Source: Pseudomonas sp. nanlin1 (GTDB lineage: Bacteria; Pseudomonadota; Gammaproteobacteria; Pseudomonadales; Pseudomonadaceae). Taken from it: a stretch of DNA of 24,000 nucleotides. The notes beneath the pieces are model-generated. The model worked only from the letters and a program-made list of their open reading frames with translations, had not been told where the DNA came from and searched no databases. Numbering within the stretch: position 1 is the stretch's first letter; the number at the start of each line of letters is the position of its first letter. The stretch spans positions 5,307,663 to 5,331,662 of the forward strand of contig NZ_CP124218.1 in assembly GCF_045571515.1 (NCBI RefSeq). The letters are read 5' to 3'. Of the stretch, positions 1-17,518 are shown piece after piece. The translations under genes were made by a program, and so were the position numbers.

Positions 1-1
1 C

Positions 2-520: not shown

Positions 521-524
521 TCCC

Positions 525-1355: not shown

Positions 1356-1368
1356 GTGAGCGATTTTG

Positions 1369-2079: not shown

Positions 2080-2081
2080 CT

Positions 2082-2978
2082 ATGTTGGCCCAGCTCGAGG
2101 CTTATTGCGCGCATTTGCGCACCGAGCGCCAGGTCTCCAGCCATACGCTGGAAGCCTACCGCCGCGACTTGAACACGGTGCTGGGTTTTTGCGAAAAGGA
2201 GCAGCTGTCGAGCTGGGCGGCGCTGGATATCCAGCATCTGCGCCGGTTGATCGCTCGCCGCCACCAACAGGGCCAATCTTCGCCAAGCCTGGCCCGGCTG
2301 CTATCTGCAGTGCGGGGCTTTTATCGTTACCTCAATCGCGAAGGCCTCTGTAGCCATGACCCGGCCAACGGCCTGGCACCGCCCAAGGGCGAGCGGCGAC
2401 TGCCGCGCACGCTGGACACCGACCGCGCGCTGCAATTGCTCGAAGGCGCGGTGGAGGACGACTTCCTGGCCCAACGTGACCAAGCCATGCTGGAGCTTTT
2501 TTACTCCAGCGGGCTGCGCTTGTCGGAGCTGACCGCCCTTAACCTGGAGCAATTGGATTTGGCCGATGGCCTGGTGCAAGTGCATGGTAAGGGCAGTAAA
2601 ACCCGCGTCCTGCCCGTCGGGCGCAAAGCGCGTGAGGCGTTGCAGCAATGGTTGCCGCTGCGGGCCCTGAGCAACCCGGCCGACGATGCCGTATTCGTCA
2701 GCCAGCAGGGCCGCCGCCTGGGCCCGCGGGCCATTCAGCTGCGGGTCAAGGCTGCCGGCGCACGCGAGCTGGGCCAGAATCTGCATCCGCACATGCTGCG
2801 GCATTCATTCGCCAGCCACCTGCTGGAGTCCTCCCAAGACCTGCGTGCCGTGCAAGAAATGCTCGGCCACGCCGACATCGCTACCACCCAGATTTACACC
2901 CACCTCGACTTTCAACACCTGGCGACGGTGTACGACAGCGCCCACCCCAGGGCCAAACGCAAAGGCGGCGACACATGA
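2082..2978 (+). CDS. xerC: Tyrosine site-specific recombinase XerC
   Basis: 298 aa. N-terminal SAM-like domain ([19 protein letters not shown]). C-terminal catalytic region is [39 protein letters not shown], containing the R-H-R-Y signature residues. Its stop overlaps the next ATG (ATGA at 2975-2978). Confidence 0.93.
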
Positions 2979-3667
2979 GCATCCAATTGATCACGTTCGA
3001 CCTTGACGATACCTTGTGGGACACCGCCCCTGTCATCATCAGCGCTGAAAGCGCATTGCGTGAGTGGCTGAACGCCCATGCCCCGCGACTGGGCCCGCTG
3101 CCTGTGGAGCAGGTGGCAGAGATCCGCAAGCGCATGGTCGACGCGGACCCCAGCTTAAAATACCGCATCAGTTTTTTACGCCAGCGAGTGCTGGCCCACG
3201 CCCTCGCCGAGGCCGGCTATGCCCAACCCGAAGCTGAGACGTTGGCTGAACAGGCATTCGCGGTGTTCCTGGAGGCCCGGCAGCAGGTCGAGGTGTTTCC
3301 CCAGGCGCAACCTGCCCTGGCGCTGCTTGCGCAAAGCTATACCTTGGGTGTGATCACTAACGGCAACGCAGATGTGCACCGTATCGGGCTGGGCGAGCAT
3401 TTCGCCTTTGCCTTGTGCGCTGAGGACATGGCCATCGGCAAGCCTGACGCGCGGCTGTTTCAGGAGGCGTTACGCCGAGGTGGGGTGCCGGCCGGCGCAG
3501 CCGTTCACGTTGGTGACCACCCCGGCGATGACATTGCCGGCGCGCAGGCTGCAGGCATGCGCGCGATCTGGTACAACCCCCGCAGGCTGCCCTGGCAAGG
3601 CGATGGCCGGCCAGATGCCGAGGTCGCCAGCCTGAGCGAGATCGCCGAAGCTGTGCGCGCGCTTTGA
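2975..3667 (+). CDS. HAD-superfamily hydrolase (YigB-like phosphatase)
   Basis: ATG at 2975 gives [16 protein letters not shown], the DxDxT HAD motif I. Motifs VITNG and GKPD...[12 protein letters not shown] follow later. The upstream part of the track ORF (2648-2974) is an out-of-frame overlap with xerC and is rejected. Confidence 0.85.
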
Positions 3668-3677
3668 GGGGTGCAAG

Positions 3678-3734
3678 AGATCGGGGGCGAGCCCCCTCCT
3701 ACACATGACGTAGGAGGGGGCTCGCCCCCGATCT
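3678..3734. repeat. REP-like perfect 25-bp inverted repeat (stem-loop) between convergent genes; probable bidirectional terminator
   Basis: The left arm 3678-3702 (AGATCGGGGGCGAGCCCCCTCCTAC) is the exact reverse complement of the right arm 3710-3734. The loop is 7 nt. The element sits between the HAD stop (3667) and the stop of the minus-strand gene at 3741. Confidence 0.8.
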
Positions 3735-3740
3735 TCTGCC

Positions 3741-4064
3741 CTAAATAGGGCGGCTGCCGTATTTGTTGTCCGGCTTCTTGGGTGGGTCGGCCACCACATT
3801 CGCTTCGACCTCCTGCACTTTGCCGCCACGCGCAAGAAACTCTTCCATGGCCCGGGCCAAGGCGTCGCGTTCCTTATTTTTGGCTTCAATGCTGGGAAGC
3901 TCGTCTACGGAGACAGCGGCCTTGGCCTTGCCTTTGGCGGCAGGGGCTGGTGAATCGCCACCGTCATCTTCCGCTACCTCCTCAGGGCCGGCCTCGAGGG
4001 ACTCCTCGGTTTCGTCATCCTCTCCGACTTCAAGGTCGTCTTGTTCCAGATCATCGTCGCTCAT
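3741..4064 (-). CDS. sutA: Small acidic protein, SutA-like RNA-polymerase-associated transcription factor
   Basis: 107 aa with a highly acidic N-terminal tail (MSDDDLEQDDLEVGEDDETEES...). The central helix is KERDALARAMEEFLARGGKVQE and the C-terminus is PPKKPDNKYGSRPI. This matches my recollection of Pseudomonas SutA; the name is from memory and was not database-checked. Confidence 0.6.
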   Translation of the reverse strand: MSDDDLEQDDLEVGEDDETEESLEAGPEEVAEDDGGDSPAPAAKGKAKAAVSVDELPSIEAKNKERDALARAMEEFLARGGKVQEVEANVVADPPKKPDNKYGSRPI

Positions 4065-4163
4065 GTTCTACCTCATGACTTGCGAAAGCAGATTATTTAT
4101 GGCCCAGCTCACCCTCTATCGACGGCAACCGGAAAAAATTCACATCCACTGTTAACCAGCGGT

Positions 4164-4589
4164 TTAAAAGCGCTCACCTTGTAGCGTCGCGAGCACCCTG
4201 CGAGCGCCGCCATGATCGCGGTGTTCGCCTAAGTAAACACCCTGCCAAGTGCCCATCGCCAACCGTCCATCCGTGACCGGCAGGCTAAGTTGGCAACCCA
4301 GCAGGCTGGCTTTGAAATGCGCCGGCAGATCGTCAGGGCCTTCATCGTTATGCTCAAAACCATCGACACCTTGCGGAGCGATAAAGTTGAAAAAACGTTC
4401 GAAATCTCGACGAACAGCCGGGTCGGCGTTTTCGTTGATGGTCAACGAGGCCGACGTGTGTTGCAGCCACACGTGCAGCAACCCGATGCGACAATCACTC
4501 AACCAGGGTAACCCGGCCACCAACTCGTCAGTGACCAGATGAAACCCTCGGGGCCTTGCCCGCAGGGTAATCAGTTGTTGCTGCCACAT
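4164..4589 (-). CDS. yjbQ: YjbQ/UPF0047 family protein (secondary thiamine-phosphate synthase-like)
   Basis: The ATG at 4589 (minus strand) gives MWQQQLITLRARPRGFHLVTDE...HTSASLTINENADPAVRRD...GPDDLPAHFKASLLG...LGTWQGVYLGEHRD, typical of the YjbQ family. The longer track ORF reaching 4820 runs through the amtB terminator and is rejected. Confidence 0.85.
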   Translation of the reverse strand: MWQQQLITLRARPRGFHLVTDELVAGLPWLSDCRIGLLHVWLQHTSASLTINENADPAVRRDFERFFNFIAPQGVDGFEHNDEGPDDLPAHFKASLLGCQLSLPVTDGRLAMGTWQGVYLGEHRDHGGARRVLATLQGERF

Positions 4590-4761
4590 ACTGTTCTCCG
4601 CACATTCGGGGCGCATTCTAGCGCGCTCTGGGGAAAAGCAAAGAGGTGGATGTAGAACAAAAGCTGTCGGAAACCACCCCCGGTTTTGCCCGCCCTCAGT
4701 GCAGTGTCGAGCAGGCCCCGAACAAACGCCCTGCCCCTGAATCAAGTGACAAACGCCAGGC

Positions 4762-4794
4762 AAAAAAATGCCCGGCGAACCGGGCATTTTTTTT
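4762..4794 (-). terminator. Rho-independent terminator downstream of amtB (symmetric, usable in both directions)
   Basis: AAAAAAATGCCCGG-CGAA-CCGGGCATTTTTTTT: a 9-bp GC-rich stem with a 4-nt loop, flanked by an A-run and a T-run. It starts about 10 nt after the amtB stop at 4804. Confidence 0.75.
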
Positions 4795-4803
4795 GGAACG
4801 CGA

Positions 4804-6138
4804 TTACAGGTTGTAACCACGCTCGTTGTGCTGCGCCAGGTCGAGGCCTACGGCTTCTTCCTCGTCGGTGACACGCAAGCCCATGATCGCATCCAGCACC
4901 TTCAGGATGATGAAGGTGACCACAGCGGTGTAGACCACGGTAAAGGCAACGCCTTTGAACTGAATCCAGACCTGCGCCGGGATGTCGGTCACGGTGCCGA
5001 AGCCGCCCAATGCTGGGGCTGCGAAAACACCGGTGAGTATCGCACCGACAATGCCACCGATCCCGTGCACGCCGAAAGCGTCCAGGGAGTCGTCGTAGCC
5101 CAGCTTGCGCTTCAGGCTGGTGGCGCAGAAGAAGCAGATCACACCGGCCGCCAGGCCAATGATCAGCGAGCCCATCGGGCCGACGGTACCGGCCGCTGGT
5201 GTGACTGCCACCAAGCCTGCAACCACACCCGAAGCGATACCCAGGGCGCTGGGCTTACCGTGGGTCAGCCACTCAGCGAACATCCAGCCCAAGGCCGCAG
5301 CTGCGGTAGCGATCTGGGTGACCAACATCGCCATACCGGCAGTGCCATTGGCCGCTGCGGCGGAGCCGGCGTTGAAGCCGAACCAGCCTACCCACAGCAT
5401 GGCCGCGCCGATTAGGGTGTAGCCCAGGTTGTGCGGCGCCATCGGGGTGGTCGGGAAGCCTTTACGCTTGCCGAGCACGATGCACGCCACCAGGCCAGCA
5501 ATACCGGCGTTGATGTGCACCACGGTGCCGCCCGCGAAGTCCAGTACGCCCCAGTCCCACATCAGGCCACCATTGCCCGACCACACCATGTGAGCGATCG
5601 GCGCATATACCAGGGTGAACCACACACCCATGAACACCAGCATCGCGGAGAACTTCATGCGCTCAGCGAAGGCACCGACGATCAGGGCAGGCGTGATGAT
5701 GGCGAAGGTCATCTGGAAGGTGATGAACACCGCTTCCGGGAACAGCGCCGTGGCGGAGGTCAGGCTGGCGGGGGTGACACCGCTCAGGAAGGCTTTGGAC
5801 AAGCCGCCCACGAAGGAATTGAAGTTAACCACGCCTTGTTCCATACCCGTGGTATCGAACGCCAGGCTGTAGCCGTACACCATCCACAGGATGGAGATCA
5901 GGCCGGTGATCGCGAAACACTGCATCATCACCGACAGGATGTTCTTGGAACGCACCATGCCGCCGTAAAACAAAGCGAGGCCGGGGATCGTCATGAACAG
6001 CACGAGTGCGGTAGCGGTGAGCATCCAGGCGGTGTCGCCGGAGTTGAGGACGGGGGCTGCCGCCTCCTCTGCCATGGCCAGGCCTGGCAAAGCGAGGGAC
6101 AACAGGGCTCCTAGCCCTGCGAATTGACGCAGAGTCAT
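4804..6138 (-). CDS. amtB: Ammonium transporter AmtB
   Basis: 444 aa. Signal peptide MTLRQFAGLGALLSLALPGLAMA is followed by about 11 TM segments. Amt-family motifs are present (DFAGGTVVHINAGIAGL; FGFNAGSA; DDSLDAFGVHGIGGIVG). It lies directly downstream of glnK. Confidence 0.95.
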   Translation of the reverse strand: MTLRQFAGLGALLSLALPGLAMAEEAAAPVLNSGDTAWMLTATALVLFMTIPGLALFYGGMVRSKNILSVMMQCFAITGLISILWMVYGYSLAFDTTGMEQGVVNFNSFVGGLSKAFLSGVTPASLTSATALFPEAVFITFQMTFAIITPALIVGAFAERMKFSAMLVFMGVWFTLVYAPIAHMVWSGNGGLMWDWGVLDFAGGTVVHINAGIAGLVACIVLGKRKGFPTTPMAPHNLGYTLIGAAMLWVGWFGFNAGSAAAANGTAGMAMLVTQIATAAAALGWMFAEWLTHGKPSALGIASGVVAGLVAVTPAAGTVGPMGSLIIGLAAGVICFFCATSLKRKLGYDDSLDAFGVHGIGGIVGAILTGVFAAPALGGFGTVTDIPAQVWIQFKGVAFTVVYTAVVTFIILKVLDAIMGLRVTDEEEAVGLDLAQHNERGYNL

Positions 6139-6171
6139 ATTGTTTTCTCCTGGGGCTTTGAGTATGGAAGG

Positions 6172-6678
<507 letters not shown>

Positions 6679-6717
6679 TCACAGCGACTGCTTCAGTGCG
6701 TGGGTCAATTGCCAATA

Positions 6718-6733
6718 AGCAGAAAGCTTGCCA
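6718..6733 (-). promoter_or_regulatory. Candidate sigma54 (-24/-12) promoter of glnK-amtB
   Basis: The minus strand reads TGGCAAGCTTTCTGCT, that is GG-N10-GC. This compares well with the consensus TGGCAC-N5-TTGCW. The implied transcription start is near 6707, about 197 nt upstream of the glnK ATG. Confidence 0.6.
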
Positions 6734-6807
6734 TGTCGCCCCAATCATCAAATTAAAGGGGATAAACCCGGCCTTTGATCAGGAAACAACCAGCCGCAGA
6801 AATGTCG

Positions 6808-6857
6808 CGCACCCAATCGGTGCGAACGCCCGGCCTAGCGCGCACAAAAACCGTGCA
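6808..6857. promoter_or_regulatory. Two candidate NtrC enhancer sites upstream of the glnK sigma54 promoter
   Basis: 6808-6824 is CGCACCcaatcGGTGCG and 6841-6857 is CGCACAaaaacCGTGCA, against the consensus TGCACC-N5-GGTGCA. By my count their centres lie about 109 and 142 nt upstream of the inferred start. This matches the classic two-site spacing of NtrC-activated promoters such as glnAp2. Confidence 0.55.
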
Positions 6858-6926
6858 ACGCTTGGGCGCCATCGAGCCCGGGCCCTGGCGTGCTACACTG
6901 CCCACCTTCAATTCAGGAGCCCGCCC

Positions 6927-7187
6927 ATGCTAGCGCCCAAAGCCTTTCTCGACGCCCTGAGCGACCAAGCTTCGCGTCTGTTCAGCGGTGACACCACGCA
7001 GCCCCGTGCCGAACTCGAAAGCCAGTTCAAAGCCCTGCTGCAAAGCGGCTTCAGCAAGCTCGAACTGGTCAGCCGAGAAGAATTCGACAGCCAGATGGTC
7101 GTATTGGCGCGCACCCGTGCGCGATTGGAGAGCCTGGAAGCCCAGGTCGCAGCACTCGAAGCCAAGCTCGCTGCACCTGCACCATAA
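6927..7187 (+). CDS. ubiK: Ubiquinone biosynthesis accessory factor UbiK (BMFP/YqiC family)
   Basis: The ATG at 6927 is preceded by CAGGAG. The 86-aa product is MLAPKAFLDALSDQASRLFSG...LVSREEFDSQMVVLARTRARLESLEAQVAALEAKL, a typical coiled-coil YqiC/UbiK. The track ORF start at 6528 is rejected. Confidence 0.8.
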   Translation: MLAPKAFLDALSDQASRLFSGDTTQPRAELESQFKALLQSGFSKLELVSREEFDSQMVVLARTRARLESLEAQVAALEAKLAAPAP

Positions 7188-7262
7188 CGTACCGCGCAAG
7201 CCGCTGGACGCCGCTGCAAGCCCTCCTTAAACTCCATCGACGTATCTGATGGATCGGTGTCG

Positions 7263-8186
7263 ATGAACCGCAATGAACTGCGCAAGGCCGATATAAACCT
7301 GATGGTGGTTTTCGAGACCCTGATGCAGGAGCGCAACGTTACCCGCGTCGCCGAGAAGCTTTTTCTCGGCCAACCCACCGTCAGCTCTGCGCTCAACCGC
7401 CTGCGTACTTTATTCAACGACCCGCTGTTCATCCGCGTGGGCCACCGCATGGAGCCTACCGCCCGCGCCGAAGAGCTCATCAAGCACCTTTCGCCGGCGC
7501 TGGATGCCATGTCCATTGCTCTGAGCCTGAGCCACGACTTCGACCCGGCTAGCAGTAATATGACCTTTCGCATCGGGCTCTCCGATGACGTCGAATTTGG
7601 CTTGCTGCCGCCCTTGCTGCGAGCGTTGCGCCTGGAAGCGCCCAAGGTGGTGTTCGTGGTGCAGCATGTGGACTACTGGCGTATTCCCGATCTGCTTGCA
7701 TCCGGTGATATCACCGTAGGCATCAGCCAGACCCGCGGGCTACCCGCCAATGCCAAGCGCAAGTTGCTGCGACGCATGCGGCCACGGGTACTGCGCGCCG
7801 ACAAGTCCGCAACCCCGCTGACCCTCGACGAATACTGCGCACGCCCCCATGTGCTGGTGTCACACACGGCCAACACCAGTGGCATCGCCGATGAGTGGCT
7901 GCACGAAATCGGGCGCTCGCGCCATGTGGTGCTGTCGGTCCCGCAATTCAGCTCGCTGCCCGCGCTACTGGCGGGCACTGACCTGCTCGCCGGCCTGCCC
8001 GATTACACCGCCGACGCCATGGCCGCCGCCGGCAATCTGTTCGCTGAACCGCTGCCATTCGATACCCCCAGCCTCGACCTGTCCATGGTCTGGCTGAGCA
8101 TCATGGACACCGACCCCGCCGAACGCTGGTTACGCGCGCGGCTGGAGGCCTTTATGGGTGACCTGCCACCGCCCGTGCCCTTGTAA
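7263..8186 (+). CDS. LysR-family transcriptional regulator
   Basis: The N-terminal wHTH is DINLMVVFETLMQERNVTRVAEKLFLGQPTVSSALNRLR, followed by a LysR substrate-binding domain. I prefer the ATG at 7263; GTG at 7257 is an alternative start. Confidence 0.85.
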   Translation: MNRNELRKADINLMVVFETLMQERNVTRVAEKLFLGQPTVSSALNRLRTLFNDPLFIRVGHRMEPTARAEELIKHLSPALDAMSIALSLSHDFDPASSNMTFRIGLSDDVEFGLLPPLLRALRLEAPKVVFVVQHVDYWRIPDLLASGDITVGISQTRGLPANAKRKLLRRMRPRVLRADKSATPLTLDEYCARPHVLVSHTANTSGIADEWLHEIGRSRHVVLSVPQFSSLPALLAGTDLLAGLPDYTADAMAAAGNLFAEPLPFDTPSLDLSMVWLSIMDTDPAERWLRARLEAFMGDLPPPVPL

Positions 8187-8249
8187 ACACAACGCCTACC
8201 GCCTGGGGTATCCTTTCGGCCCTCGATATGCTCAGAGCCCGAAGTCCTG

Positions 8250-10187
8250 ATGTCTGCGTTTGCCCCTGCCACCGCTCTACACTCGCCCTTGCCCGCCGTA
8301 CTGGTGGGCCCACTGCTACGGCGCCTTGAACCCCAACGGGTGGTGCTCTGGCTGGTGGCATCGAGGCGCTTGAGCCTGCAATTGCAGTTGCATAGCCCCG
8401 GGGCACAGGTGGCGACCTTCGCGCTCAATGAGGAACATTGCCAGGTGGTTGCCATTGGTGTGCACGCGTTCGTGCACCTGGTCGATGTCAAATTGGGCGC
8501 TCCCCTGCCCTTCGACCAGTCCATCGGTTACGACCTGCTAATCGATGAGCCCGGCCCAGGCCAGCAAGGCATCGCCCAGTGGGCCCCTCACTTGCTGTAT
8601 GACGGTGCACAGCGGCCCAACTTCGTGCTGCGCGAGCGCATCGACCAGATCCTCCATGGCTCTTGCCGCAAGCCGCACCACCCGGCAGCCGACGGCCTGC
8701 TCTGCGTCGACCGCCTGCTCGCCGCCTGCGAGCAACCGCAACAGCGCCCGGCCCTGCTAATGATGAGCGGCGACCAAGTGTATGCCGACGATGTGGCCGG
8801 GCCGATGCTACGCGCCATCCACTGCCTGATAGAGCGCCTCGGGCTGTACGACGAGCAGTTGGAAGGTGCCGTGGTGGACGACAGCGCCGCCTTGTATACC
8901 CACGCCGCCAGCTATTACCGGCGCGCTGACTTGCTGCCCGCTTTGAAAAGCAACGATACCCTACGCGAGCGTTTTTTCGGCGGCACGCGTAAACCGATTT
9001 TCACCAGTAGCAGTGCCGACAACCACTTGGTCACCCTGGCCGAGGTGCTGGCCATGTACCTGTTGGTCTGGTCGCCAACCCCCTGGCAACTCATCGCGCC
9101 GCAACCGCCCGCCTTGGCACCCGAGCAGCAAGCTCGCTACGCCGAAGAGAGCGTTTGCATCGACGGCTTCCGCGACGGCCTGGGCGCCGTGGCCCGCGCC
9201 CTTGCGCACTTGCCGTGCCTGATGATTTTCGACGACCACGACATCACCGATGACTGGAACCTGTCGGCGCAATGGGAAGAAACCGCCTACGGCCACCCCT
9301 TCTCCAAGCGCATCATCGGCAACGCCTTGATCGCCTACCTGTTGTGCCAGGGCTGGGGCAATAACCCCGACGCATTCGGTGCCCCCTTGGCCAAGCTTCA
9401 GGCGCTCAGCGCCAGCGGCCGTGATACCTGGTTCGACAAACCCGTGCAGGACGACCTGATCACTGACCTGCTGCAGTTCCACCAATGGGAGTACGTGCTG
9501 CCGACCAGCCCCTCCCTGGTGGTACTCGACACCCGCACCCGGCGCTGGCGCAGCGAACTGAACCTCAAACGCCCCTCGGGCCTGCTCGATTGGGAAGCCC
9601 TGAGCGAACTGCAGCAGAAATTGCTCGACCACCCTTCCGCCATCGTGGTGTCTGCGGCGCCGATCTTCGGGGTAAAACTGATCGAAACCGTACAAAAGGT
9701 ATTCAGTTGGTTCGGCCAGCCGTTGATGGTCGACGCCGAAAACTGGATGGCCCACCGAGGCGCCGCCCAAGTGATCCTGAACATATTCCGACACTCCCGT
9801 ACGCCAAGGGACTACGTGATCCTGTCCGGAGACGTACACTATTCATTCGTCTATGAAGTAAAGATCCGCTACCGCGAACGCGGCCCCACCATCTGGCAGA
9901 TCACCAGCAGCGGCGTCAAAAACGAATTCCCTCGTGGCCTGCTGGAGACCTTCGACCGCCTCAACCGCTGGCTCTACGCCCCTTGGTCGCCGCTCAACTG
10001 GCTCACCAAACGCCGACGCATGGAAGTCGTACCACGCGTACCGCAACCCCGTGAGGCGGGCGAACGCCTGTGGAACGGCTCGGGGGTCGGGCAGGTGTTT
10101 TTTAACGAAAAGGGGCAGCCGAGTCGGATTTTTCAGTTGAATGCGAATGGGCATGAGGCGACGGAGTTTTTGCCGTTAGAGCGGTAA
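8250..10187 (+). CDS. PhoD-like / calcineurin-like metallophosphatase family protein
   Basis: 645 aa. Metallophosphoesterase-type motifs are SGDQVYADD, FDDHDITDDWN and LSGDVHYSF. GC content and codon usage look like the core genome. The substrate is unknown. Confidence 0.65.
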   Translation: MSAFAPATALHSPLPAVLVGPLLRRLEPQRVVLWLVASRRLSLQLQLHSPGAQVATFALNEEHCQVVAIGVHAFVHLVDVKLGAPLPFDQSIGYDLLIDEPGPGQQGIAQWAPHLLYDGAQRPNFVLRERIDQILHGSCRKPHHPAADGLLCVDRLLAACEQPQQRPALLMMSGDQVYADDVAGPMLRAIHCLIERLGLYDEQLEGAVVDDSAALYTHAASYYRRADLLPALKSNDTLRERFFGGTRKPIFTSSSADNHLVTLAEVLAMYLLVWSPTPWQLIAPQPPALAPEQQARYAEESVCIDGFRDGLGAVARALAHLPCLMIFDDHDITDDWNLSAQWEETAYGHPFSKRIIGNALIAYLLCQGWGNNPDAFGAPLAKLQALSASGRDTWFDKPVQDDLITDLLQFHQWEYVLPTSPSLVVLDTRTRRWRSELNLKRPSGLLDWEALSELQQKLLDHPSAIVVSAAPIFGVKLIETVQKVFSWFGQPLMVDAENWMAHRGAAQVILNIFRHSRTPRDYVILSGDVHYSFVYEVKIRYRERGPTIWQITSSGVKNEFPRGLLETFDRLNRWLYAPWSPLNWLTKRRRMEVVPRVPQPREAGERLWNGSGVGQVFFNEKGQPSRIFQLNANGHEATEFLPLER

Positions 10188-10307
10188 AGGATTGCTGTAT
10201 GGACAAAGCGGGATGAATTATCAAATCTGGTAAAACAGACAGGACTGCAGGTTGGCGAGCGATAACTCCCAATATGAACAGAAAATATAACTGCAACCAA
10301 TTAGATA

Positions 10308-11480
10308 TCATAAAATATCGACCTTTACGCGTTCAGATTTCAGTTGCTCGCTTAAAGTCCGCATTGATTTCACCCAGAAGTTGATTGATAAAGATGAGGT
10401 TAGAGATTTGATCTCATGAAACCAACCTTCAGGCAAAAAAAGGATATCTCCTGGTTTCAAATTAACCTCAATAAAAAGGACCTGTTCCGCCTTAGGGAAT
10501 GCGGTATAGTCGGGCGCTGTGGGCTTGAAATCACAGCCTTCCAAACCGCCGTTCAGTGACGTTGACCAACAGCCCAGAGCCTCGCGATTGTGAGGCGCTG
10601 CTAGGAGAACCGATTTTTCTCCCCACACTTGGGCAAAAATGTTGTCGACATCATCTCTGTGTAATGGAGTAAGGGTGCCTTCAGGGCCTAGCCAAAAGCG
10701 CGGCGTGTGATATAGAGAACGATCAAAAAAATTAGGAAATTTGATGAATTCAATCAGCCTCTCAGGCAGAATATTATTACCCATATACGCTGGCAGCTCA
10801 TCAGAACTCTTACGGGGCATGTCATCAATATTTGCAATAAATTCTGAAATAGAAGAAACCCTAAACTCCCGCTCAGTTGAGAAAGCCTTATCGACATATG
10901 CACCATGACGAGTAATACCCTGTAAATTCGAAAATATTTCTTGAACAGAATCCCTCGACATACTGAATAACGGCCAATCTCTCAGCCCTTGAGAAATTAC
11001 AACTGGAATTCCTTTCAAACGATGGTTAACAGTAAATTCTTTACGAGACAAATCATCTGCTGGAATTCGCATGACTCCATTGTCAAAACTTAAACGTTCT
11101 GATACATCTTCACTAAAACGAGGCAATGCGGGATATCGCTTATTCATCACGACCTCAATCGCACCAGAGTTTTTTCTGTCGATCGCCCGTATCAGATCGG
11201 GAATTAAAGTTGCCCGACCAAGGTCACCAACTATTTTCAACCTACCTTCAGAAAATAATTGCTCAATGTCAGCTTCGCCTTGCACCACCTTGTAAAAAAA
11301 ATATTCCAGTATGTGGATAGTAACGTCAGGGAAAGCATGCATACCACACTGAGCAGTCTTTGATTTGGGAGCATTTATCCAGTAGCGATCAGAGTCTGAA
11401 AAAACAAACTGAAAAACTCCTGAAACACCTACCAAATCAGCATTGTAAAACAATTCAGAAACCTTGTTTATTAAGCACAT
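10308..11480 (-). CDS. SCP2-domain / JmjC (cupin, FIH-like) 2-oxoglutarate-Fe(II) oxygenase fusion protein
   Basis: The C-terminal half has TPLHRDDVDNIFAQVWGEKSVLL (HxD plus a 2OG-binding Lys context) and GDILFLPEGWFHEIKSL (distal His). It closely parallels the FIH motifs NFFAQIKGYKRCILF and GDVLYIPMYWWHHIESL as I recall them. The N-terminal approx. 110 aa has an SCP2-like signature (...VTIHILEYFFYKVVQGEADIEQLFSEGRLKIVGDLGRATLIPDL). I prefer the ATG at 11480, preceded by GGAG; the track start at 11570 would overlap the upstream gene by 37 nt. Confidence 0.8.
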   Translation of the reverse strand: MCLINKVSELFYNADLVGVSGVFQFVFSDSDRYWINAPKSKTAQCGMHAFPDVTIHILEYFFYKVVQGEADIEQLFSEGRLKIVGDLGRATLIPDLIRAIDRKNSGAIEVVMNKRYPALPRFSEDVSERLSFDNGVMRIPADDLSRKEFTVNHRLKGIPVVISQGLRDWPLFSMSRDSVQEIFSNLQGITRHGAYVDKAFSTEREFRVSSISEFIANIDDMPRKSSDELPAYMGNNILPERLIEFIKFPNFFDRSLYHTPRFWLGPEGTLTPLHRDDVDNIFAQVWGEKSVLLAAPHNREALGCWSTSLNGGLEGCDFKPTAPDYTAFPKAEQVLFIEVNLKPGDILFLPEGWFHEIKSLTSSLSINFWVKSMRTLSEQLKSERVKVDIL

Positions 11481-11533
11481 ATCTAACTCCGAGCCACCCT
11501 TAATATATACAAATCCGGCGCACAATATAATTT

Positions 11534-12646
11534 CTAATGATCGTTCAAGGCAGCCGCCCCCCCTGAACATTCAATCAAAACTTTATCAATATCTAACAAA
11601 CGCTGAGTAGTTGCTTTCCACGCTGCTAATCGCTCGTATGCACTTATGAACCAACACAGGTTTTCGCACAAATTGCCGAAAGCCGAATTTATCTGCATAA
11701 TATCGCCAAAACTTAGGCTGCCCGCAAAAAACCGAGGTACTGCCAGCATGCTGCTGAAAATTAGGCAAAACTTGTTATAGCTTATGCTAAATAGGGTCAA
11801 GCGACTTTTAACCATAATTACCTGGCGCATGTTCGTGAGACTCACTTCTAATTTTTTCATAACAGATGCCTTTCTAGAACAGTTTATTTTCTCTATACGC
11901 TGCATTAGAGAATTACTTCGAAAGGAGACAAGTTCAAATCGGAGATCAGCCTCAGATCGTTGTTGATCATTACTTAACAGAACCAAACTAGAGCCTATCC
12001 TTTGGCAAATATATGTACCGAAAAAAGCGTATAGAATGGCAGCCCAAAACATATGAGCCGGCACCGTAACGCCCCATACAGAAGCCTCGCCGGAAATTTC
12101 GACTAATACGAAGCTAAATGAGATGATGCTTACAGCCGTATAAATCAGCCCGCACAAAAGATCTAACGATTCAAAGGTGAATTTCTTGATATCCTCTGCG
12201 ATTCTCTGATCAGGGTTGTCAATAATCCATTCAATCTCATGTGCCCGAGCGGAAGCAGAGCCCCATTTAGAAATATAATAGCGAGTTAACCAGCGCCTCC
12301 ATTTGAGCGCAAGCAAATCGACAAGGTAAGTAACGGCAACGAGCCTAGCGACGCAAAAGATGGAAATCCCGACAAAAAACCCAATTAAACTATAAAAGCC
12401 CCGCACGTCGCGATCTTGGATGGCATTGTAAAAATTTTTATACCATTCATTGATAGCCAGAGCTGATACCACCCCCAAGATCGAAAGAGCGAGCAACGTA
12501 AGAATTGCAAACCAAGCAAAAGCACGCTCTTGGCTGCCCCAATAGAGCGAGATGATAGGAATCAAAGACTTAAAAAAACAATTACTTTCAACTTTTGATA
12601 CTTTATTGCGATACGCCATGTATCCTTCACCCGCAGTATGCATCAT
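11534..12646 (-). CDS. SbmA/BacA-like peptide transporter (transmembrane domain only, no ATPase domain)
   Basis: 370 aa and polytopic. Motifs NEWYKNFYNAIQ, KWRRWLTRYYISKW, NPDQRIAEDIKKF and a C-terminal INSAFGNL...ERLAAWKATTQRL line up with E. coli SbmA (NAWYAPFYDLIQ, RWRTAMNEYYMANW, AAQRVQEDTMRF, ITNVFGQV...MSIYKRLRSFE) as recalled from memory. No Walker motifs are present. An alternative start is the ATG at 12619, preceded by GAAGGA. Confidence 0.72.
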   Translation of the reverse strand: MMHTAGEGYMAYRNKVSKVESNCFFKSLIPIISLYWGSQERAFAWFAILTLLALSILGVVSALAINEWYKNFYNAIQDRDVRGFYSLIGFFVGISIFCVARLVAVTYLVDLLALKWRRWLTRYYISKWGSASARAHEIEWIIDNPDQRIAEDIKKFTFESLDLLCGLIYTAVSIISFSFVLVEISGEASVWGVTVPAHMFWAAILYAFFGTYICQRIGSSLVLLSNDQQRSEADLRFELVSFRSNSLMQRIEKINCSRKASVMKKLEVSLTNMRQVIMVKSRLTLFSISYNKFCLIFSSMLAVPRFFAGSLSFGDIMQINSAFGNLCENLCWFISAYERLAAWKATTQRLLDIDKVLIECSGGAAALNDH

Positions 12647-12684
12647 AGCATTTGTAAGATTATCTCGGTTAACTGGTGGTATCG

Positions 12685-14106
12685 CTAAATCGACCAGAAG
12701 CCTAACTTTCCCAAACTAGAGCCAAGTCGGAGACGCGCGATTTGCCAGTTTTTCATCGTGTCAATGTGTTCCTGATTGGCAGCAGAGGAGGCAGACAAGG
12801 CATTTAACAACTCAATCATGCTGCCGACTCCGGACTGATAGCGTCCCCGTTCAATATTTAATGATTGACTTGAAAACTCTACCCATTTATCTGTGGCGTC
12901 TAACGAGTCCGTTGCAGATTTAAGATCTTGGACATTTGACCAGACATCTAATGCAACTTGTAGTTCTTGACCTAAAATTTCGGCTTCGCGCTGTTCCAGC
13001 CGTGCTTGGGCAGCGCGTGCGTTAGACCGCCCTTCGAAACCATCAAACAAAGGAATAATTAATTGAATGCTAATGCTATTATCTTGGATATAGCTCCTCC
13101 CACTCGGTTGTACAGATTGATCAGTTCTGACGTTGCTATGACTAACTTTCAGATTAATTCTCGGCATTGTCTCCGCACGCTGCACCTCAATGGCCGCTTT
13201 TTGGGCGTCTCTTACAGAATTTGCAAAAATCATGGAAGGATGATCTCGCTTGGCTTGTTCGATGAGCTCATTGACGCTTTCAGAAAATTTGATACCTGGA
13301 TTTCGGCGTAAATTCACCGCTAGTTCTAAAGGAGTTTCAGGTGGGAGCCCCATGCGCAACGCGATTAGTCCCTTAGCTTTAAGGAGTGTTCTTTGGTGAT
13401 GGCCCCTGTTAATTTGAGCCTGGGAATAAGCGGTCTGGGCCTGGAGACGATCTGAAAGCGCGGCCGCACCTGATTCATACTTAGCGGTCGCCACTTGAAG
13501 ATATTCAGATGCGTAGGCAGAAACTTGGCTTGCCGCGACAAATCTATGATGTGCCGCAACTGTATCGTAGAATAGTTGTGAAGCATGTAAAAACACATCC
13601 TGCAGATGATTGTCTTGGCCAGCGTTTGCTGCAATGAGTAAATGTTTTGCATTTCTAAGATTCGCATCCCTGTGACCGAAGTCAAATAGCACCCAACTCA
13701 AACTCAGTCGGTTGTGAATTTGCCGCAGATACCCATGTGTAGAAAGGTTATACCGCTGATCGTATGCGATGTCCTTGTCACTACCGGTAACAGCAACGAT
13801 GCCATCGAGGCGTGGCAGATAAGCTGACTTTCTGACCTCAACAGCTTCGGCTTGAGCTTTGGAAATAGCCAATCCCCGCCGAACCTGAGGATCATTACAA
13901 AAAACTCGTTCGACCACGTCTTCCAAAGTCAAGACCTTCGGCAATACATTGCTATGACAAGCGATGGGTAGACTACCAAAGCGATGTATATCACTACTGT
14001 ACATACTAATCGGAGTTAGTGAGCCCGCAGCATCCGATGCTCCGACAGAGTTTGAATAGACCAAGTATAGAAAGCATGTGATGTGAGTTATAAATTTCTT
14101 TAGCAT
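12685..14106 (-). CDS. TolC-family outer membrane channel (type I secretion OMP)
   Basis: 473 aa. Signal peptide is MLKKFITHITCFLYLVYSNSVGA. The N-terminal region LTLEDVVERVFCNDPQVRRGLAISKAQAEAVEVRKSAYLPRLDG is typical of TolC/OEP repeats, and the architecture shows two OEP repeats. The gene starts 3 nt after the ABC gene stop. Confidence 0.88.
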   Translation of the reverse strand: MLKKFITHITCFLYLVYSNSVGASDAAGSLTPISMYSSDIHRFGSLPIACHSNVLPKVLTLEDVVERVFCNDPQVRRGLAISKAQAEAVEVRKSAYLPRLDGIVAVTGSDKDIAYDQRYNLSTHGYLRQIHNRLSLSWVLFDFGHRDANLRNAKHLLIAANAGQDNHLQDVFLHASQLFYDTVAAHHRFVAASQVSAYASEYLQVATAKYESGAAALSDRLQAQTAYSQAQINRGHHQRTLLKAKGLIALRMGLPPETPLELAVNLRRNPGIKFSESVNELIEQAKRDHPSMIFANSVRDAQKAAIEVQRAETMPRINLKVSHSNVRTDQSVQPSGRSYIQDNSISIQLIIPLFDGFEGRSNARAAQARLEQREAEILGQELQVALDVWSNVQDLKSATDSLDATDKWVEFSSQSLNIERGRYQSGVGSMIELLNALSASSAANQEHIDTMKNWQIARLRLGSSLGKLGFWSI

Positions 14107-14109
14107 TTT

Positions 14110-16236
14110 TTAACGTCCGCAGCCGGACATATTGACGCGATCATCCACAACTCGACCAGCATGCAACGAAACCACTCGATTTGCAGTAGCTATAGTCTCG
14201 GGGCGGTGCGCAACAAGAATCCTAGTTATTTGAAGAGATTGCAGAGCAAGATTTACTTGGCGCTCACATGCTAGGTCAAGATGACTTGTTGCCTCATCAA
14301 GTATAAGAATGTCCGGTTTTTTATAGAGCGCCCTTGCCAGAAGCACGCGCTGCTTCTGCCCCCCAGATAAAACAGTGCCCATATCCCCAACGAGTGTATT
14401 GTAACCCATCGGCAGTGCCTGAATTTCATCGTGAATTGAGGCCTTCCGGGAACACTCTATGATCCAGTCCAAGTCAGGACTAGTATCAAAAAAAGCGATA
14501 TTATCTGCAAGTGAACCAGCAAAAAGACAATCATCTTGCATAACGGTGCCGATTTGGCTGCGAAATTTATTCACATTTAAATGGCGGAGATCTTCACCGG
14601 CTATTTTTATCTTTCCTTCCGTAGGGGTTAAGATCCCCAATAACAGCCCAATGAGAGTACTTTTACCACTACCAGAAGCGCCGGCGATCGCAACTAACTC
14701 CCCATAAGCAATATGCAGGTCTATACCCTTTAATACATAATCTTCATGCGCCGAATAACGATACTTTAAACCCTTTATATCAATATCGCCAAAGAGAGCA
14801 GGATCTCTATCTTCAAACTCCTTGATATCTTCAGGGGGAGAGGTAACAATATCTGCCAAACGCTCAGCCTGTAATCTAAGCATATTAAGTGCAAAAATGC
14901 TGTCTATTAAACTGGATACACGACTCATAAACTGAGTTTTATACGCTATAAATGCCATCAGCACACCGACAGTGAATTCACTATTCATAACCATTGAAGC
15001 ACCAAACCCGACTGCAATAATACTTTCAGCGCCAAAAATCAAGCTATTCAATTGCGTATATGTCAGCTGTAGTTTGTGGGTTCTTAAACCGGCGTTGATC
15101 TGCTGGACCAGTAACGCGAGCCAAACTGACCGCCTCTCAGCGTCACGTTGAAAAAGCTTAATTGTACGTATGCCTCGTACAGTTTCGAAAAAATGACTTT
15201 CTTGTCGAGCAGTATGAGTGATTTGCTCCTCACTTGCCCGGCGTAATGGAAGGTACCATGCCCATCTAAAAGCTGCGTAGGCAACAATGGCGGCCACACT
15301 TACCAGTGAAAGTGGTGGACTATAAGCAAACATTAGAATGAGCGTTGCTATGGTCATTAATCCATCAAGCAGAGTGGAAAAAAAAGCAGCCGTCAGTGTT
15401 TTCTGTATTTCGCCAATAGCGCCGAATCTTGAAACGATGTCACCTAAATGGCGCTTTTCGAAATACTGAACGGGTAAGCGGAGAAGATGAGTAAATACGT
15501 TGGCACGCCACTGAACACTTAATAAGGTAGTCATGTGAATCATGACCAAAGCAAGTGTAAAACTAACCGCTTGCTGCATCACTAATAATATAGAAAATCC
15601 TATTATTAACATATGCAGCAGATCGCGATCCTGGGTAATCAATACATTGTCGAAGATCCATTGTAAAAAAAATGGACCTATCAGTGACATGGTCTCCAGC
15701 ACAAGCGCCAATATTAGCACTTGCGTTAAACTCCGATATAGTCCGTGGACTCTGCCTACGATATCTGCAATTTTTATCTCCGACTTGGCCTTCTTTTTTT
15801 CAAAACCGTTGTCCGTCCATAATTCAACAGCTATACCAGTGAAAGATAGGCTGACTTCAGATAGACTTAACTTACAGTTGCCTTTTGCGGGGTCATGCAA
15901 GACTACATACTCTCCCTGTATGGCTTTTAGAACAACAAAGTGGTTGAAGTTCCAGTGCAAAATGCACGGCAAGCTGAGCTTCCCTATATCTTCAAGCTCA
16001 AGCCTGACAGATCTTGTACCCAGCTTGAGAATTTTAGCTGTTGTAATCAGCTGCTTCAGATTCATTCCTTTGAGGGACACACTAAATTGACGGCGTAAAT
16101 CCATAAGTGATACGTGGTATCCGTGATAACATGAGATCATTGCTAAGCACGCCAAACCACATTCGGTAGCTTCCGTTTGGAGAATCAATGGTAGCCGTCG
16201 GCCAATCCGAAACGCTAACGAATCTAAGTAACTCAT
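14110..16236 (-). CDS. Peptidase-C39 domain ABC transporter (bacteriocin/microcin processing exporter, CvaB/MchF-like)
   Basis: 708 aa. The N-terminal C39 domain has a catalytic Cys context (QTEATECGLACLAMISCYHGY) and a His/Asp context (ILHWNFNHFVVL...VLHDPAKG). Six TM helices follow. The NBD has Walker A GASGSGKST, signature LSGGQKQR and Walker B ILILDEATS. Confidence 0.95.
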   Translation of the reverse strand: MSYLDSLAFRIGRRLPLILQTEATECGLACLAMISCYHGYHVSLMDLRRQFSVSLKGMNLKQLITTAKILKLGTRSVRLELEDIGKLSLPCILHWNFNHFVVLKAIQGEYVVLHDPAKGNCKLSLSEVSLSFTGIAVELWTDNGFEKKKAKSEIKIADIVGRVHGLYRSLTQVLILALVLETMSLIGPFFLQWIFDNVLITQDRDLLHMLIIGFSILLVMQQAVSFTLALVMIHMTTLLSVQWRANVFTHLLRLPVQYFEKRHLGDIVSRFGAIGEIQKTLTAAFFSTLLDGLMTIATLILMFAYSPPLSLVSVAAIVAYAAFRWAWYLPLRRASEEQITHTARQESHFFETVRGIRTIKLFQRDAERRSVWLALLVQQINAGLRTHKLQLTYTQLNSLIFGAESIIAVGFGASMVMNSEFTVGVLMAFIAYKTQFMSRVSSLIDSIFALNMLRLQAERLADIVTSPPEDIKEFEDRDPALFGDIDIKGLKYRYSAHEDYVLKGIDLHIAYGELVAIAGASGSGKSTLIGLLLGILTPTEGKIKIAGEDLRHLNVNKFRSQIGTVMQDDCLFAGSLADNIAFFDTSPDLDWIIECSRKASIHDEIQALPMGYNTLVGDMGTVLSGGQKQRVLLARALYKKPDILILDEATSHLDLACERQVNLALQSLQITRILVAHRPETIATANRVVSLHAGRVVDDRVNMSGCGR

Positions 16237-16246
16237 TTAATTTCCT

Positions 16247-17518
16247 TCAGAATTTTTCTGTCAGACTATAGATAGGATTGATCACCCATTCATATAGATG
16301 GCGACTTTCCTGCAAGATGTCTGCTTCAACCAACATGCCAGCACGAAGCGGACGAGATTCTCCATTAGCCATCACGAATTGGTCCTCGATTTCAACGCGA
16401 ACTTGATATACTTGCTCCCCACCAACTTCGAGCCCGGGCACGGTTCCAGACACAGAAGCTAATTCATGTGCAGACAAAGCAATTTTTGTAATGCTTTTGA
16501 TCTTTCCGGCGTGCTGACCAAATTTTTGATAGGGGAAGGAGTGATATCGCATCATCACAACATCCCCGACGTCAATAAATCCGACAGCTCTACCTGGAGC
16601 ATATAGCTCAACTAGGAGAGAAGACCCTTCCGGTAAAACAGTCATCAACGGCCGATTATAGTGTATGGTTTGACCTGGCTCGGCTAAGATAGCCGTTACC
16701 AAACCCGCCTGCGGAGCAATCACTATTTCTGTACGCTGGGCCTCGCTTTCAATAAACTCCTGCTCTACATTGAGCAGCGCACGTTGAATAGCGGCTTCTT
16801 GATTTTGATGTATAGCCGAAAGCTGCGAGCAATAACGTGTCCGCTCTGTAAACTCGTAATCTAGGACCTGGGCCTCTCTAGCTAGCATCTGGAGCTTTTG
16901 CCGCTGACCCAATAGTTCCGCTTGGCGTTGCTGTAATTGGTCGATCGATATGTAACCTTTTTCCCTGAGACCTTGATAACGATTGCTTGCGTCCGCGGCC
17001 AGTTGGACCAGCCTTCTTTGGTCCGCTATCTGCTCGCTTAATGCCTCTAACTGATGCTTGAGACTTTTTAGCTTGCTTTGAATACCAGACGTCTCCTCAG
17101 CCTGAATCTGCTTGAGTGTTAACAATTCCTTCCGAAGAGATAGTCTTCGCTGTCCTATGCGATCACTAACACCTGCATGCACGTGGCTTAAATCCCCTGA
17201 ACGACGCTCGCCGGATAACCGAACCAGCCGCTCTCCCTGCTTGACCACTTGGCCCTCTTCAACAAACCGCTCGAGTATTGAGCCATTCCCCCTGGCATAT
17301 ATTTTTACCAGGCCTTGGGACGGTACCAACTGCCCGGAAAGCGTAACGCGCTTTGTATAACTGCCAAGAAATAGCATCATGATTAGCGAAACTAACGCGC
17401 CCCCCGCAAGCATCGTGTATAGACGAAATGATATTGGCCGAACTATTAAAACCTCGCCCAACCATAGAGCGCCTCTAGAACTCAATGCTTCAGAACGAAA
17501 CAACCTTTTTTTTGACAT
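16247..17518 (-). CDS. HlyD-family membrane fusion protein (CvaA/MchE-like)
   Basis: The ATG at 17518 gives MSKKRLFRSEALSSRGALWLGEVLIVRPISF..., which parallels the CvaA N-terminus (FRQDALE...). A single TM helix is followed by a long coiled coil and a C-terminal beta-barrel. The stop lies 10 nt upstream of the ABC start, and an AAGGAA SD lies in the gap. Confidence 0.9.
   Translation of the reverse strand: MSKKRLFRSEALSSRGALWLGEVLIVRPISFRLYTMLAGGALVSLIMMLFLGSYTKRVTLSGQLVPSQGLVKIYARGNGSILERFVEEGQVVKQGERLVRLSGERRSGDLSHVHAGVSDRIGQRRLSLRKELLTLKQIQAEETSGIQSKLKSLKHQLEALSEQIADQRRLVQLAADASNRYQGLREKGYISIDQLQQRQAELLGQRQKLQMLAREAQVLDYEFTERTRYCSQLSAIHQNQEAAIQRALLNVEQEFIESEAQRTEIVIAPQAGLVTAILAEPGQTIHYNRPLMTVLPEGSSLLVELYAPGRAVGFIDVGDVVMMRYHSFPYQKFGQHAGKIKSITKIALSAHELASVSGTVPGLEVGGEQVYQVRVEIEDQFVMANGESRPLRAGMLVEADILQESRHLYEWVINPIYSLTEKF

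Follow-up and report, generated by a model that had tools for sequence, protein, structure and literature searches.

In class IIb microcins, a siderophore moiety is attached by the MchC/MchD (MceJ/MceI) proteins (PMC6071977, PMC12219008). In the literature searched, these microcins were found only in Enterobacterales and only with salmochelin-type partners, and no report from Pseudomonas was found. The second described system of relevance is the pyoverdine gene cluster, from which a fusion of an SCP2 domain with a JOR/JmjC domain was described in silico by Iyer, Abhiman, de Souza and Aravind in 2010 (PMC2938197); the literature search returned no experimental study of these pyoverdine-locus SCP2-JmjC proteins. 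The present analysis concerns a stretch of 24,000 nucleotides (nt) from Pseudomonas sp. nanlin1 (NZ_CP124218.1, positions 5,307,663 to 5,331,662; the whole stretch is called the window), in which an SCP2-JmjC gene closes an array of microcin export genes. The SCP2-JmjC architecture, the enzyme class and class IIb-type systems are already known. New are the cassette context of SCP2-JmjC, its sister-clade relation to the pyoverdine-locus enzymes, its accessory distribution linked to an SbmA-like gene, and a Pseudomonas class IIb-like system without sugar-tailoring genes. As the initial annotation of the window had supposed, no such enzyme was reported from class II microcin clusters in the literature searched.

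The gene is a minus-strand open reading frame (ORF) with its ATG at 11478-11480, its stop codon at 10308-10310 and a GGAG ribosome-binding site 6 nt 5' of the ATG. The protein starts with MCLINKV, a start Met shared by the homologues; an in-frame upstream extension to 11570 exists, which the public annotation does not include. The product is 100% identical to the NCBI entry 'cupin-like domain-containing protein [Pseudomonas sp. nanlin1]'. Its features, all on the minus strand, are as follows (aa, amino acids).

10308..11480, minus strand: predicted SCP2-JmjC (Cupin_8) Fe(II)/2-oxoglutarate (2OG) oxygenase of 390 aa, terminal gene of the array (ORF, Pfam, annotation match, AlphaFold model, Foldseek)
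11205..11441, minus strand: SCP2 lipid/hydrophobic-ligand-binding domain, aa 14-92 (PF02036, PDB SCP2 chains)
10374..11039, minus strand: JmjC/Cupin_8 catalytic domain, aa 148-369 (PF13621, invariant residues)
10659-10661, minus strand: codon of H274
10653-10655, minus strand: codon of D276
10641-10643, minus strand: codon of N280
10614-10616, minus strand: codon of K289
10416-10418, minus strand: codon of H355

In the Pfam searches, all matches were above the curated cut-offs: Cupin_8 (PF13621) at aa 148-369 with E = 1.5e-30 and 107.4 bits (cut-off 27.4), SCP2 (PF02036) at aa 14-92 with E = 6.4e-7 and 30.1 bits (cut-off 21.3) and JmjC_2 (PF08007) with E = 2.2e-5 and 24.5 bits (cut-off 22). 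A PDB profile search additionally matched residues 19-95 to the SCP2 chains 2c0l, 1qnd and 1c44 (E = 7e-9 to 4e-8). The active-site motif reads TLTPLH274RD276DVDN280...K289...H355, and the H274-x-D276...H355 triad together with K289 (His+15) was invariant in 72 aligned homologues and 86 locus-derived sequences. The SCP2 plus JmjC gene is a real feature, far beyond chance, and both the two-domain architecture and the iron triad with its lysine, as initially annotated, were borne out. By inspection, the N-terminal sequence has neither a signal peptide nor a membrane segment, and a cytoplasmic location is therefore expected. Presumably, the SCP2 domain binds the substrate by a hydrophobic or acyl portion.

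The AlphaFold model based on the 72-sequence alignment (pLDDT 89.5, pTM 0.88) and its Foldseek match to JMJD5 support a double-stranded beta-helix fold. Human JMJD5 ranked first in the PDB (E = 2e-20, TM 0.84 on the target, root-mean-square deviation (rmsd) about 3 A, 25% identity), followed by JMJD7, TYW5 and then FIH (E about 4e-17). The profile search gave the same picture, with JMJD5 matching at E = 1.6e-26 over residues 120-370, the whole catalytic domain, and FIH and JMJD7 at about 2e-17 over residues 261-372 only. Similarity to FIH did not extend over the full length and left out the N-terminal half, which binds the substrate. The nearest characterised enzyme is JMJD5 and not FIH, which belongs to the same subfamily and is more distant; the earlier label 'FIH-like' holds at the level of the subfamily, and not for the nearest relative, as the FIH profile covered only the C-terminal half.

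In the alignment, H274, D276, N280, K289 and H355 correspond to H321, D323, N327, K336 and H400 of JMJD5, and W263, T271 and W369 to W310, S318 and W414. The positions of JMJD5 E238, Y243 and W248 are occupied by Y195, F200 and F206; these three residues and W263 and W369 are invariant and, by alignment only, stand at positions lining the JMJD5 substrate pocket. E238 and Y243 are, as we assume, the residues with which JMJD5 grips the guanidinium group of its substrate, and because both are replaced by the invariant Y195 and F200, an arginine substrate would not be expected. It was concluded that the protein is a predicted, catalytically competent Fe(II)/2OG hydroxylase of the JMJD5/JMJD7/FIH (Cupin_8) subfamily.

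About 190 homologues were collected, nearly all from Pseudomonas, all composed of SCP2 and Cupin_8 and 51-58% identical to the window protein; none from P. aeruginosa was among the matches listed. Genomic loci were sampled from 80 of 132 genome matches, plus contigs, and scored with the window proteins (loci are designated by L numbers below). They split cleanly into two contexts, microcin cassettes and non-ribosomal peptide synthetase (NRPS)/pyoverdine loci. The cassettes carry HlyD, C39-ABC, TolC-like, SbmA-like and JmjC genes in this order, plus LuxR, MchC and HlyC, and occur in P. monachiensis, P. fluorescens LY3, P. soli, P. bharatica, P. wayambapalatensis, strain 1P02AnB and metagenomes. 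The same-strand adjacency of SbmA-like and JmjC was seen at 14 loci at least, which represent 10 distinct sequences.

In the other context, about 70 loci, the JmjC gene was located beside a gene for a large NRPS that begins with a condensation domain and a type II thioesterase gene, with no SbmA-like neighbour and no ribosomal peptide nearby. In P. capeferrum WCS358, it lies between PvdT/OpmQ/PvdM/PvdN-like genes and a gene for a PvdH-like aminotransferase, a gene order from which we take the locus to be the pyoverdine locus. The identification of the 4,100-aa NRPS next to the paralogue as PvdL was considered and rejected, since it starts with a condensation domain and is not collinear with the PvdL-type model; it is a variable peptide-chain NRPS.

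In a neighbour-joining tree, the cassette copies formed one clade, sister to the pyoverdine-locus clade, with the window protein on the longest branch. The cassette copies lie in islands of 44-60% guanine-cytosine (GC) content between flanks of 61-66%, whereas the pyoverdine-locus copies have native GC. Comparison of the cassette clade (10 sequences) with the pyoverdine-locus clade (76 sequences) revealed 163 positions at least 90% conserved and identical in both and only 17 clade-specific positions, all conservative but one (R154/L); the catalytic and putative pocket residues were identical throughout. Because the two clades are so alike and share their pocket residues, the cassette and pyoverdine-locus enzymes most likely have one reaction, and one kind of target group, in common.

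Pyoverdine-locus JmjC proteins from the P. fluorescens group were 86-100% identical to each other. The thioesterase and MFS proteins encoded next to them were similarly conserved, but identity in the first adenylation domain of the NRPS beside them fell to about 44% among pyoverdine loci. The stability of the JmjC protein beside so variable a domain argues that the enzyme does not follow the strain-specific peptide, and it would probably act on something common to all these pathways. Such a link to a conserved feature departs from the 2010 proposal, which concerned the strain-specific peptide.

In the window, positions 1-10200 have a GC content of 62% and carry ordinary Pseudomonas core genes (dapF, a DUF484 gene, a xerC-like gene, amtB-glnK and the genes for a HAD hydrolase, a PhoD-like phosphatase and a LysR regulator), whereas the region from about 10200 to the window end has about 43%. 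This low-GC island is horizontally acquired. The GC step (about 10190-10310) lies directly past the convergent PhoD-like gene (stop at 10187), with JmjC as the outermost island gene at this edge. No tRNA, Rfam feature, integrase or direct repeat was found at this island edge; the xerC-like integrase gene at 2082-2978 belongs to the core dapF-xerC region. Five co-directional genes, HlyD, C39-ABC, TolC-like, SbmA/BacA-like and JmjC, follow each other with gaps of 10, 3, 38 and 53 nt. Besides the JmjC gene, the array and its divergent neighbour comprise the following features.

11534..12646, minus strand: SbmA/BacA-like membrane protein that lacks an ATPase domain; ORF of 370 aa, 361 aa in the annotation (PF05992/PF06472, NCBIfam SbmA/YddA-type)
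12685..14106, minus strand: TolC-family outer-membrane channel (PF02321, TIGR01844)
14110..16236, minus strand: C39-peptidase ABC exporter (PCAT), with Peptidase_C39, ABC_membrane and ABC_tran domains and matches to bacteriocin-export NCBIfam models
16247..17563, minus strand: HlyD-family membrane fusion protein (HlyD_3, TIGR01843)
17754..17963, plus strand: small LuxR/GerE-type helix-turn-helix regulator, divergent from the exporter array and kept in related cassettes (PF00196, E = 3.6e-19)

The position of the JmjC gene as the last of the exporter array, already noted in the initial annotation, was confirmed by the common strand and the short gaps, and the synteny recurs in other loci. Because the spacing is tight and the synteny conserved, the JmjC gene is probably co-transcribed with the exporter and SbmA-like genes. 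The counts from a sigma-70 promoter and terminator scan of 9800-21000 did not exceed the shuffled expectation, and the scan was uninformative on operon boundaries. The SbmA-like protein consists of the membrane domain only (about 370 aa) and has about 75 close relatives, all of them Pseudomonas cassette proteins. Next in similarity, at 35-40% identity, come ATPase-containing YddA/BacA-type ABC proteins of about 580 aa, which carry annotations as vitamin B12/bleomycin/antimicrobial-peptide transporters. Beyond the regulator gene, the stretch 17964-20060, about 2 kb, is otherwise ORF-poor and contains a degraded IS5-family transposase remnant (18231-18984, between the LuxR-type regulator and the precursor gene), which lacks an intact ORF and whose DNA is 74% identical to that of IS5 transposases annotated on plasmids of Pseudomonas.

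The remaining part of the island carries the precursor and the putative conjugation genes.

20060..20374, minus strand: microcin precursor with a double-glycine leader (MRELTDEEIFMVSG, followed by A), a Gly/Ala-rich core and a Gly/Ser/Ala tail (...NGIDRLGGSGGAGGSLAA)
20377..20628, minus strand: 83-aa hydrophobic ORF with a 4-nt overlap with the precursor ORF, a candidate immunity protein
20817..22637, plus strand: MchC/MceJ-like protein with a SelO/YdiU nucleotidyltransferase fold; 606-aa ORF, annotated as 578 aa
22627..23103, plus strand: HlyC-family acyltransferase, MchD/MceI-like (PF02794, E = 9.8e-18)

The 83-aa ORF had no family match and no homologue among the other loci. The 606-aa MchC-like protein had no Pfam match; it matched enterobacterial 'MchC protein' entries (E about 1e-40) and also SelO-family proteins (PF02696), and BLASTP showed 32% identity to Serratia MchC (E = 7e-52). 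Its AlphaFold model (pLDDT 88) matched the AMPylases YdiU/SelO in Foldseek (E = 4e-12). Its possible start is at 20817, and the public annotation and most homologues use a start 28 codons downstream. The HlyC protein is 38% identical to the HlyC protein encoded next to MchC in Serratia. Because of the MchC homology, the SelO/YdiU fold and the HlyC family match, the two proteins were taken as the counterpart of MchC/MchD (MceJ/MceI), and the 'acyltransferase pair' first read from the sequence could be given this identity. The absence of a sugar-installing enzyme was also correctly foreseen: neither a glycosyltransferase (MceC/MchA) nor an esterase (MceD/MchS1) was found in 10200-24000 or in the complete cassettes L090, L092 and L135. 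The precursor tail, GGSGGAGGSLAA, is Gly/Ser-rich with Ala as the last residue; the relatives end with GA, GS, SGQ, SSS or NRGS.

A survey of the cassette family was performed by a metagenome scan with an MchC alignment, with all loci re-scored and four further contigs included. Three cassette types were distinguished, with SbmA-like and JmjC, with SbmA-like only and with neither. In the P. lactis cassette, MchC and HlyC come immediately after the SbmA-like gene; the P. corrugata cassette has neither SbmA-like nor JmjC. The JmjC gene was absent from L090/91, L105, L106, L111-113, L117/118, L135 and L136, and both genes were absent from L092 and L110. A cassette-type JmjC gene without the SbmA-like gene was never seen in the loci examined, and it always stands directly behind it. 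At 90% identity, the cassette-type JmjC proteins fell into about 15 clusters, the SbmA-like proteins into about 75 and the MchC proteins into about 100, and about 15% of the related cassettes have the JmjC gene. The clearest case is that of the P. soli-like loci L105 and L107, 92-95% identical in DNA, in which a clean 1.2-kb indel corresponds exactly to the JmjC gene. It was concluded that JmjC is carried as an optional gene for tailoring by a mobile microcin cassette of Pseudomonas, whose core consists of a double-glycine precursor, the C39-ABC/HlyD/TolC exporter, the LuxR-type regulator and the MchC(SelO-fold)/MchD(HlyC) pair. Two genomes with a pyoverdine-locus JmjC gene have JmjC-less cassettes, which is uninformative because about 85% of cassettes lack the gene anyway. 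In L018 (P. bharatica CSV86, 5201-8776), the C39-ABC gene is split into ORFs of 284 and 475 aa and the TolC-like gene into ORFs of 229 and 233 aa; the exporter is apparently pseudogenised there, and the JmjC, MchC and precursor ORFs are intact.

Precursor mining in all cassettes revealed at least three unrelated core families. Family 1 has a C-terminal ...G-V-I-x-G-N-x-x-R-[LVM] followed by a short Gly/Ser/Ala tail (window 20060-20374; L007 39-380; L010 1938-2204; L011 2436-2711; L016 7580-7873; L018 810-1088; L105 4162-4455; L110 833-1126), family 2 a C-terminal ...SWNPSAFxGTSFFPQ..., and family 3 ends with ...GIPWGASMGGGSGA. The window precursor is a family-1 variant, S-N-G-I-D-R-L-GGSGGAGGSLAA (NGIDRL), with a one-residue insertion and the longest tail of the family. 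JmjC-positive cassettes hold family 1 (the window, L007, L010, L011, L016/L107 and L018), family 2 (L007, L067 and L100) or family 3 (L104); JmjC-negative ones hold family 1 (L105 and L110), family 2 (L092, L106 and L111) or other families. L104 and L107 have a common backbone, both with JmjC, and their precursors differ; L105 and L107 have the same precursor and differ in JmjC status. A dependence of JmjC on the family-1 motif G-N-x-x-R-[LVM] was considered and rejected on this distribution. A membrane protein of about 158 aa without a family match always accompanies family-2 precursors (L005 37-513; L007 7237-7716; L092 8783-9250; also L100, L101, L102, L103, L106, L108, L111 and L067) and is likely the family-2 immunity protein; the window has no copy.

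These data bear on the possibility that SCP2-JmjC beta-hydroxylates the microcin peptide itself, at a core Asn/Asp/His or a C-terminal residue, and so tunes activity or receptor binding or makes an acceptor hydroxyl. The characterised close relatives JMJD5, JMJD7 and FIH do hydroxylate peptide or protein side chains, the JmjC gene and a precursor share one island, and the cassettes have no sugar-installing enzyme. The family-1 motif contains Asn and Arg, and six of the eight family-1 cassettes of known status are JmjC-positive; however, the JmjC-positive L067, L100 and L104 have only family-2/3 precursors, without this motif, family-1 precursors occur without JmjC in L105 and L110, and no residue or tail feature was found to separate the precursors of JmjC-positive from those of JmjC-negative cassettes. 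An Arg target is made unlikely by Y195, F200 and F206 at the Arg-binding positions of JMJD5, and the pocket is identical to that of the paralogues in NRPS loci devoid of ribosomal peptides. Most MchC/MchD cassettes also do without the gene. Action on the peptide was, on balance, regarded as unlikely.

The specific proposal of the initial annotation, hydroxylation of the Asn/Asp/His-containing core (NLINEHTPVQSWISNGIDR), was not sustained, as JmjC-positive and JmjC-negative cassettes share precursor families, cassettes that are almost identical and share a precursor are set apart by JmjC alone, and the pocket does not differ from that of the NRPS-locus paralogues. Its further idea, a hydroxyl serving as acceptor for the conjugation pair, cannot hold generally, since the JmjC gene is missing from most MchC/MchD cassettes, and stands only as a host- or partner-specific option.

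The strict pairing of JmjC with the SbmA-like gene allows another explanation, in which the two form a separate module, only physically linked to the microcin genes, for a hydrophobic molecule or an imported peptide, with a function in detoxification, self-protection or signalling. Proteins of the SbmA/BacA family import peptides and other cargo, the SCP2 fold binds lipids, and in P. soli-type cassettes the precursor gene parts the pair from the exporter genes. In P. lactis-type cassettes, however, the SbmA-like gene sits between TolC-like and MchC/HlyC in one array, which suggests integration with maturation and export; moreover, the pair was not seen outside the cassettes and the pyoverdine-locus paralogues have no SbmA-like neighbour. 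This explanation was considered distinctly improbable.

The preferred reading starts from the paralogues. The domains, active-site motifs, fold, synteny, accessory status and clade structure are shown by the analysis, whereas we infer the substrate class, the co-transcription and the link to the conjugation step. The conservation of the enzyme across pyoverdine loci, together with its SCP2 domain, points to a conserved hydrophobic or acyl-bearing non-ribosomal intermediate as the substrate. Cytoplasmic pyoverdine precursors carry a myristoyl or myristoleoyl chain, which would suit the SCP2 domain. SCP2-JmjC and its pyoverdine-locus paralogues would share one reaction, carried out on a conserved, non-ribosomal and possibly acylated moiety; the MchC/MchD-like pair would join this moiety, or a derivative, as the partner to the Gly/Ser/Ala-rich microcin C-terminus. 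The enzyme would thereby substitute for the glycosyltransferase and esterase that serve for tailoring in enterobacterial class IIb systems, the SbmA-like protein might deliver the partner, and the variable microcin core would not be the target. That a partner of the pyoverdine-pathway type, or its precursor, is hydroxylated and then joined to the microcin is proposed tentatively, at somewhat less than even confidence. The fallback offered initially, tailoring of a hydrophobic cofactor, comes closer to this proposal.

A variant places the hydroxylation on the acyl chain or hydrophobic group itself, with SCP2 as the substrate channel, in pyoverdine loci and cassettes alike. The SCP2 fusion, the invariant aromatic or neutral residues Y195, F200, F206, W263 and W369 at the pocket-lining positions of JMJD5 and the acyl chain of the pyoverdine precursors would all fit. 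On the other side, the pocket assignment comes from the alignment alone, the precursors have no conserved Lys as a lipidation site, and we know of no JmjC/Cupin_8 enzyme that hydroxylates fatty acyl groups; direct lipid hydroxylation is thus held to be very improbable.

Several points weigh against the preferred proposal of a hydroxylated pyoverdine-pathway partner. Nothing in the cassettes directly links them to pyoverdine: a Fur box (at least 13 of 19 matches) was absent from all promoter regions scanned, and the two window matches to the PvdS box TAAAT-N15-17-CGT equal the chance expectation, with neither in an intergenic promoter. Mature pyoverdine is periplasmic and non-acylated, which makes a cytoplasmic conjugation route speculative, and all characterised Cupin_8 hydroxylases act, to our knowledge, on protein/peptide residues or a tRNA base. 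The constant SbmA-like to JmjC order may stem from a single ancestral insertion. The JmjC/precursor comparison is small, with about 10 JmjC-positive and about 11 JmjC-negative cassettes, and the loci may hold more precursors beyond the fetched range.

A more specific form of the proposal is a siderophore-microcin of Pseudomonas' own, in which the MchC/MchD pair of a mobile cassette would couple a Gly/Ala-rich microcin to a partner derived from the pyoverdine pathway and not to salmochelin. The SbmA-like protein would bring this partner to the cytoplasm and SCP2-JmjC would hydroxylate a conserved part of it, possibly making or adjusting the attachment handle. This elaboration is rather unlikely as it stands; if true, it would give the pyoverdine-locus SCP2-JmjC family its first function. 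The Pseudomonas cassette family, about 100 MchC clusters, keeps the conjugation pair and swaps the partner-tailoring genes, and the JmjC gene is the one component that hints, through its paralogues, at what the partner might be. Natural pairs with and without JmjC, such as the P. soli-like L105 and L107, make the question directly testable. The answer bears on the design of Trojan-horse antibiotics against Pseudomonas, on what is done by a conserved enzyme of pyoverdine loci that was noted in 2010 but has apparently not been studied, and on the catalytic range of bacterial JmjC hydroxylases.

Compared with known systems, the enzyme shares with the arginyl C3-hydroxylase JMJD5/KDM8 (PDB 6f4p, 4gjy and others) the H-x-D, the N at His+6, the K at His+15 and the distal His. 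JMJD5 differs in having no SCP2 domain and, by alignment, in its guanidinium-binding E238/Y243, which are Tyr/Phe in the window protein. The Asn/Asp/His beta-hydroxylase FIH shares the Cupin_8 subfamily and the spacing of triad and Lys (H199/D201/K214/H279, as we take its numbering to be), whereas its global superposition is poor (rmsd about 13 A) and it ranks behind JMJD5, JMJD7 and TYW5. The SCP2-JOR/JmjC proteins of pyoverdine clusters have the same two-domain architecture, a similar length (about 375-390 aa) and 51-58% identity; their genes lie in NRPS loci of native GC, whereas the clade of the window gene occurs only in low-GC microcin cassettes.

With the class IIb systems of MccE492, MccH47 and MccM (MceC/D/I/J; MchA/S1/C/D), the cassette shares a double-glycine precursor, export by PCAT and membrane fusion protein, the MchC/MceJ-like and HlyC-type MchD/MceI-like pair and a Gly/Ser-rich C-terminal tail. 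It differs in its Pseudomonas host, its own TolC-like gene and LuxR-type regulator, and in having SbmA-like and SCP2-JmjC genes instead of the glycosyltransferase and esterase; the window tail ends with Ala and not Ser. A further parallel is offered by Serratia marcescens, for which MchC, lysine-acyltransferase and NRPS genes were listed in 2026 as candidate microcin-modification genes of an undefined subclass (PMC13101503). In the Serratia marcescens locus L137 (9001-18964), two NRPS genes (C-A-T and C-A-T-TE) lie directly downstream of the MchC-like and HlyC-like genes and in the same orientation, and small ORFs flank the array on both sides. Here too, the pair is coupled to non-ribosomal peptide genes and not to salmochelin tailoring; in Serratia, however, the NRPS genes adjoin the pair, whereas the Pseudomonas cassette has only the tailoring paralogue of an NRPS cluster and the SbmA-like protein. 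The Serratia locus is a different way to supply a partner to the same conjugation pair.

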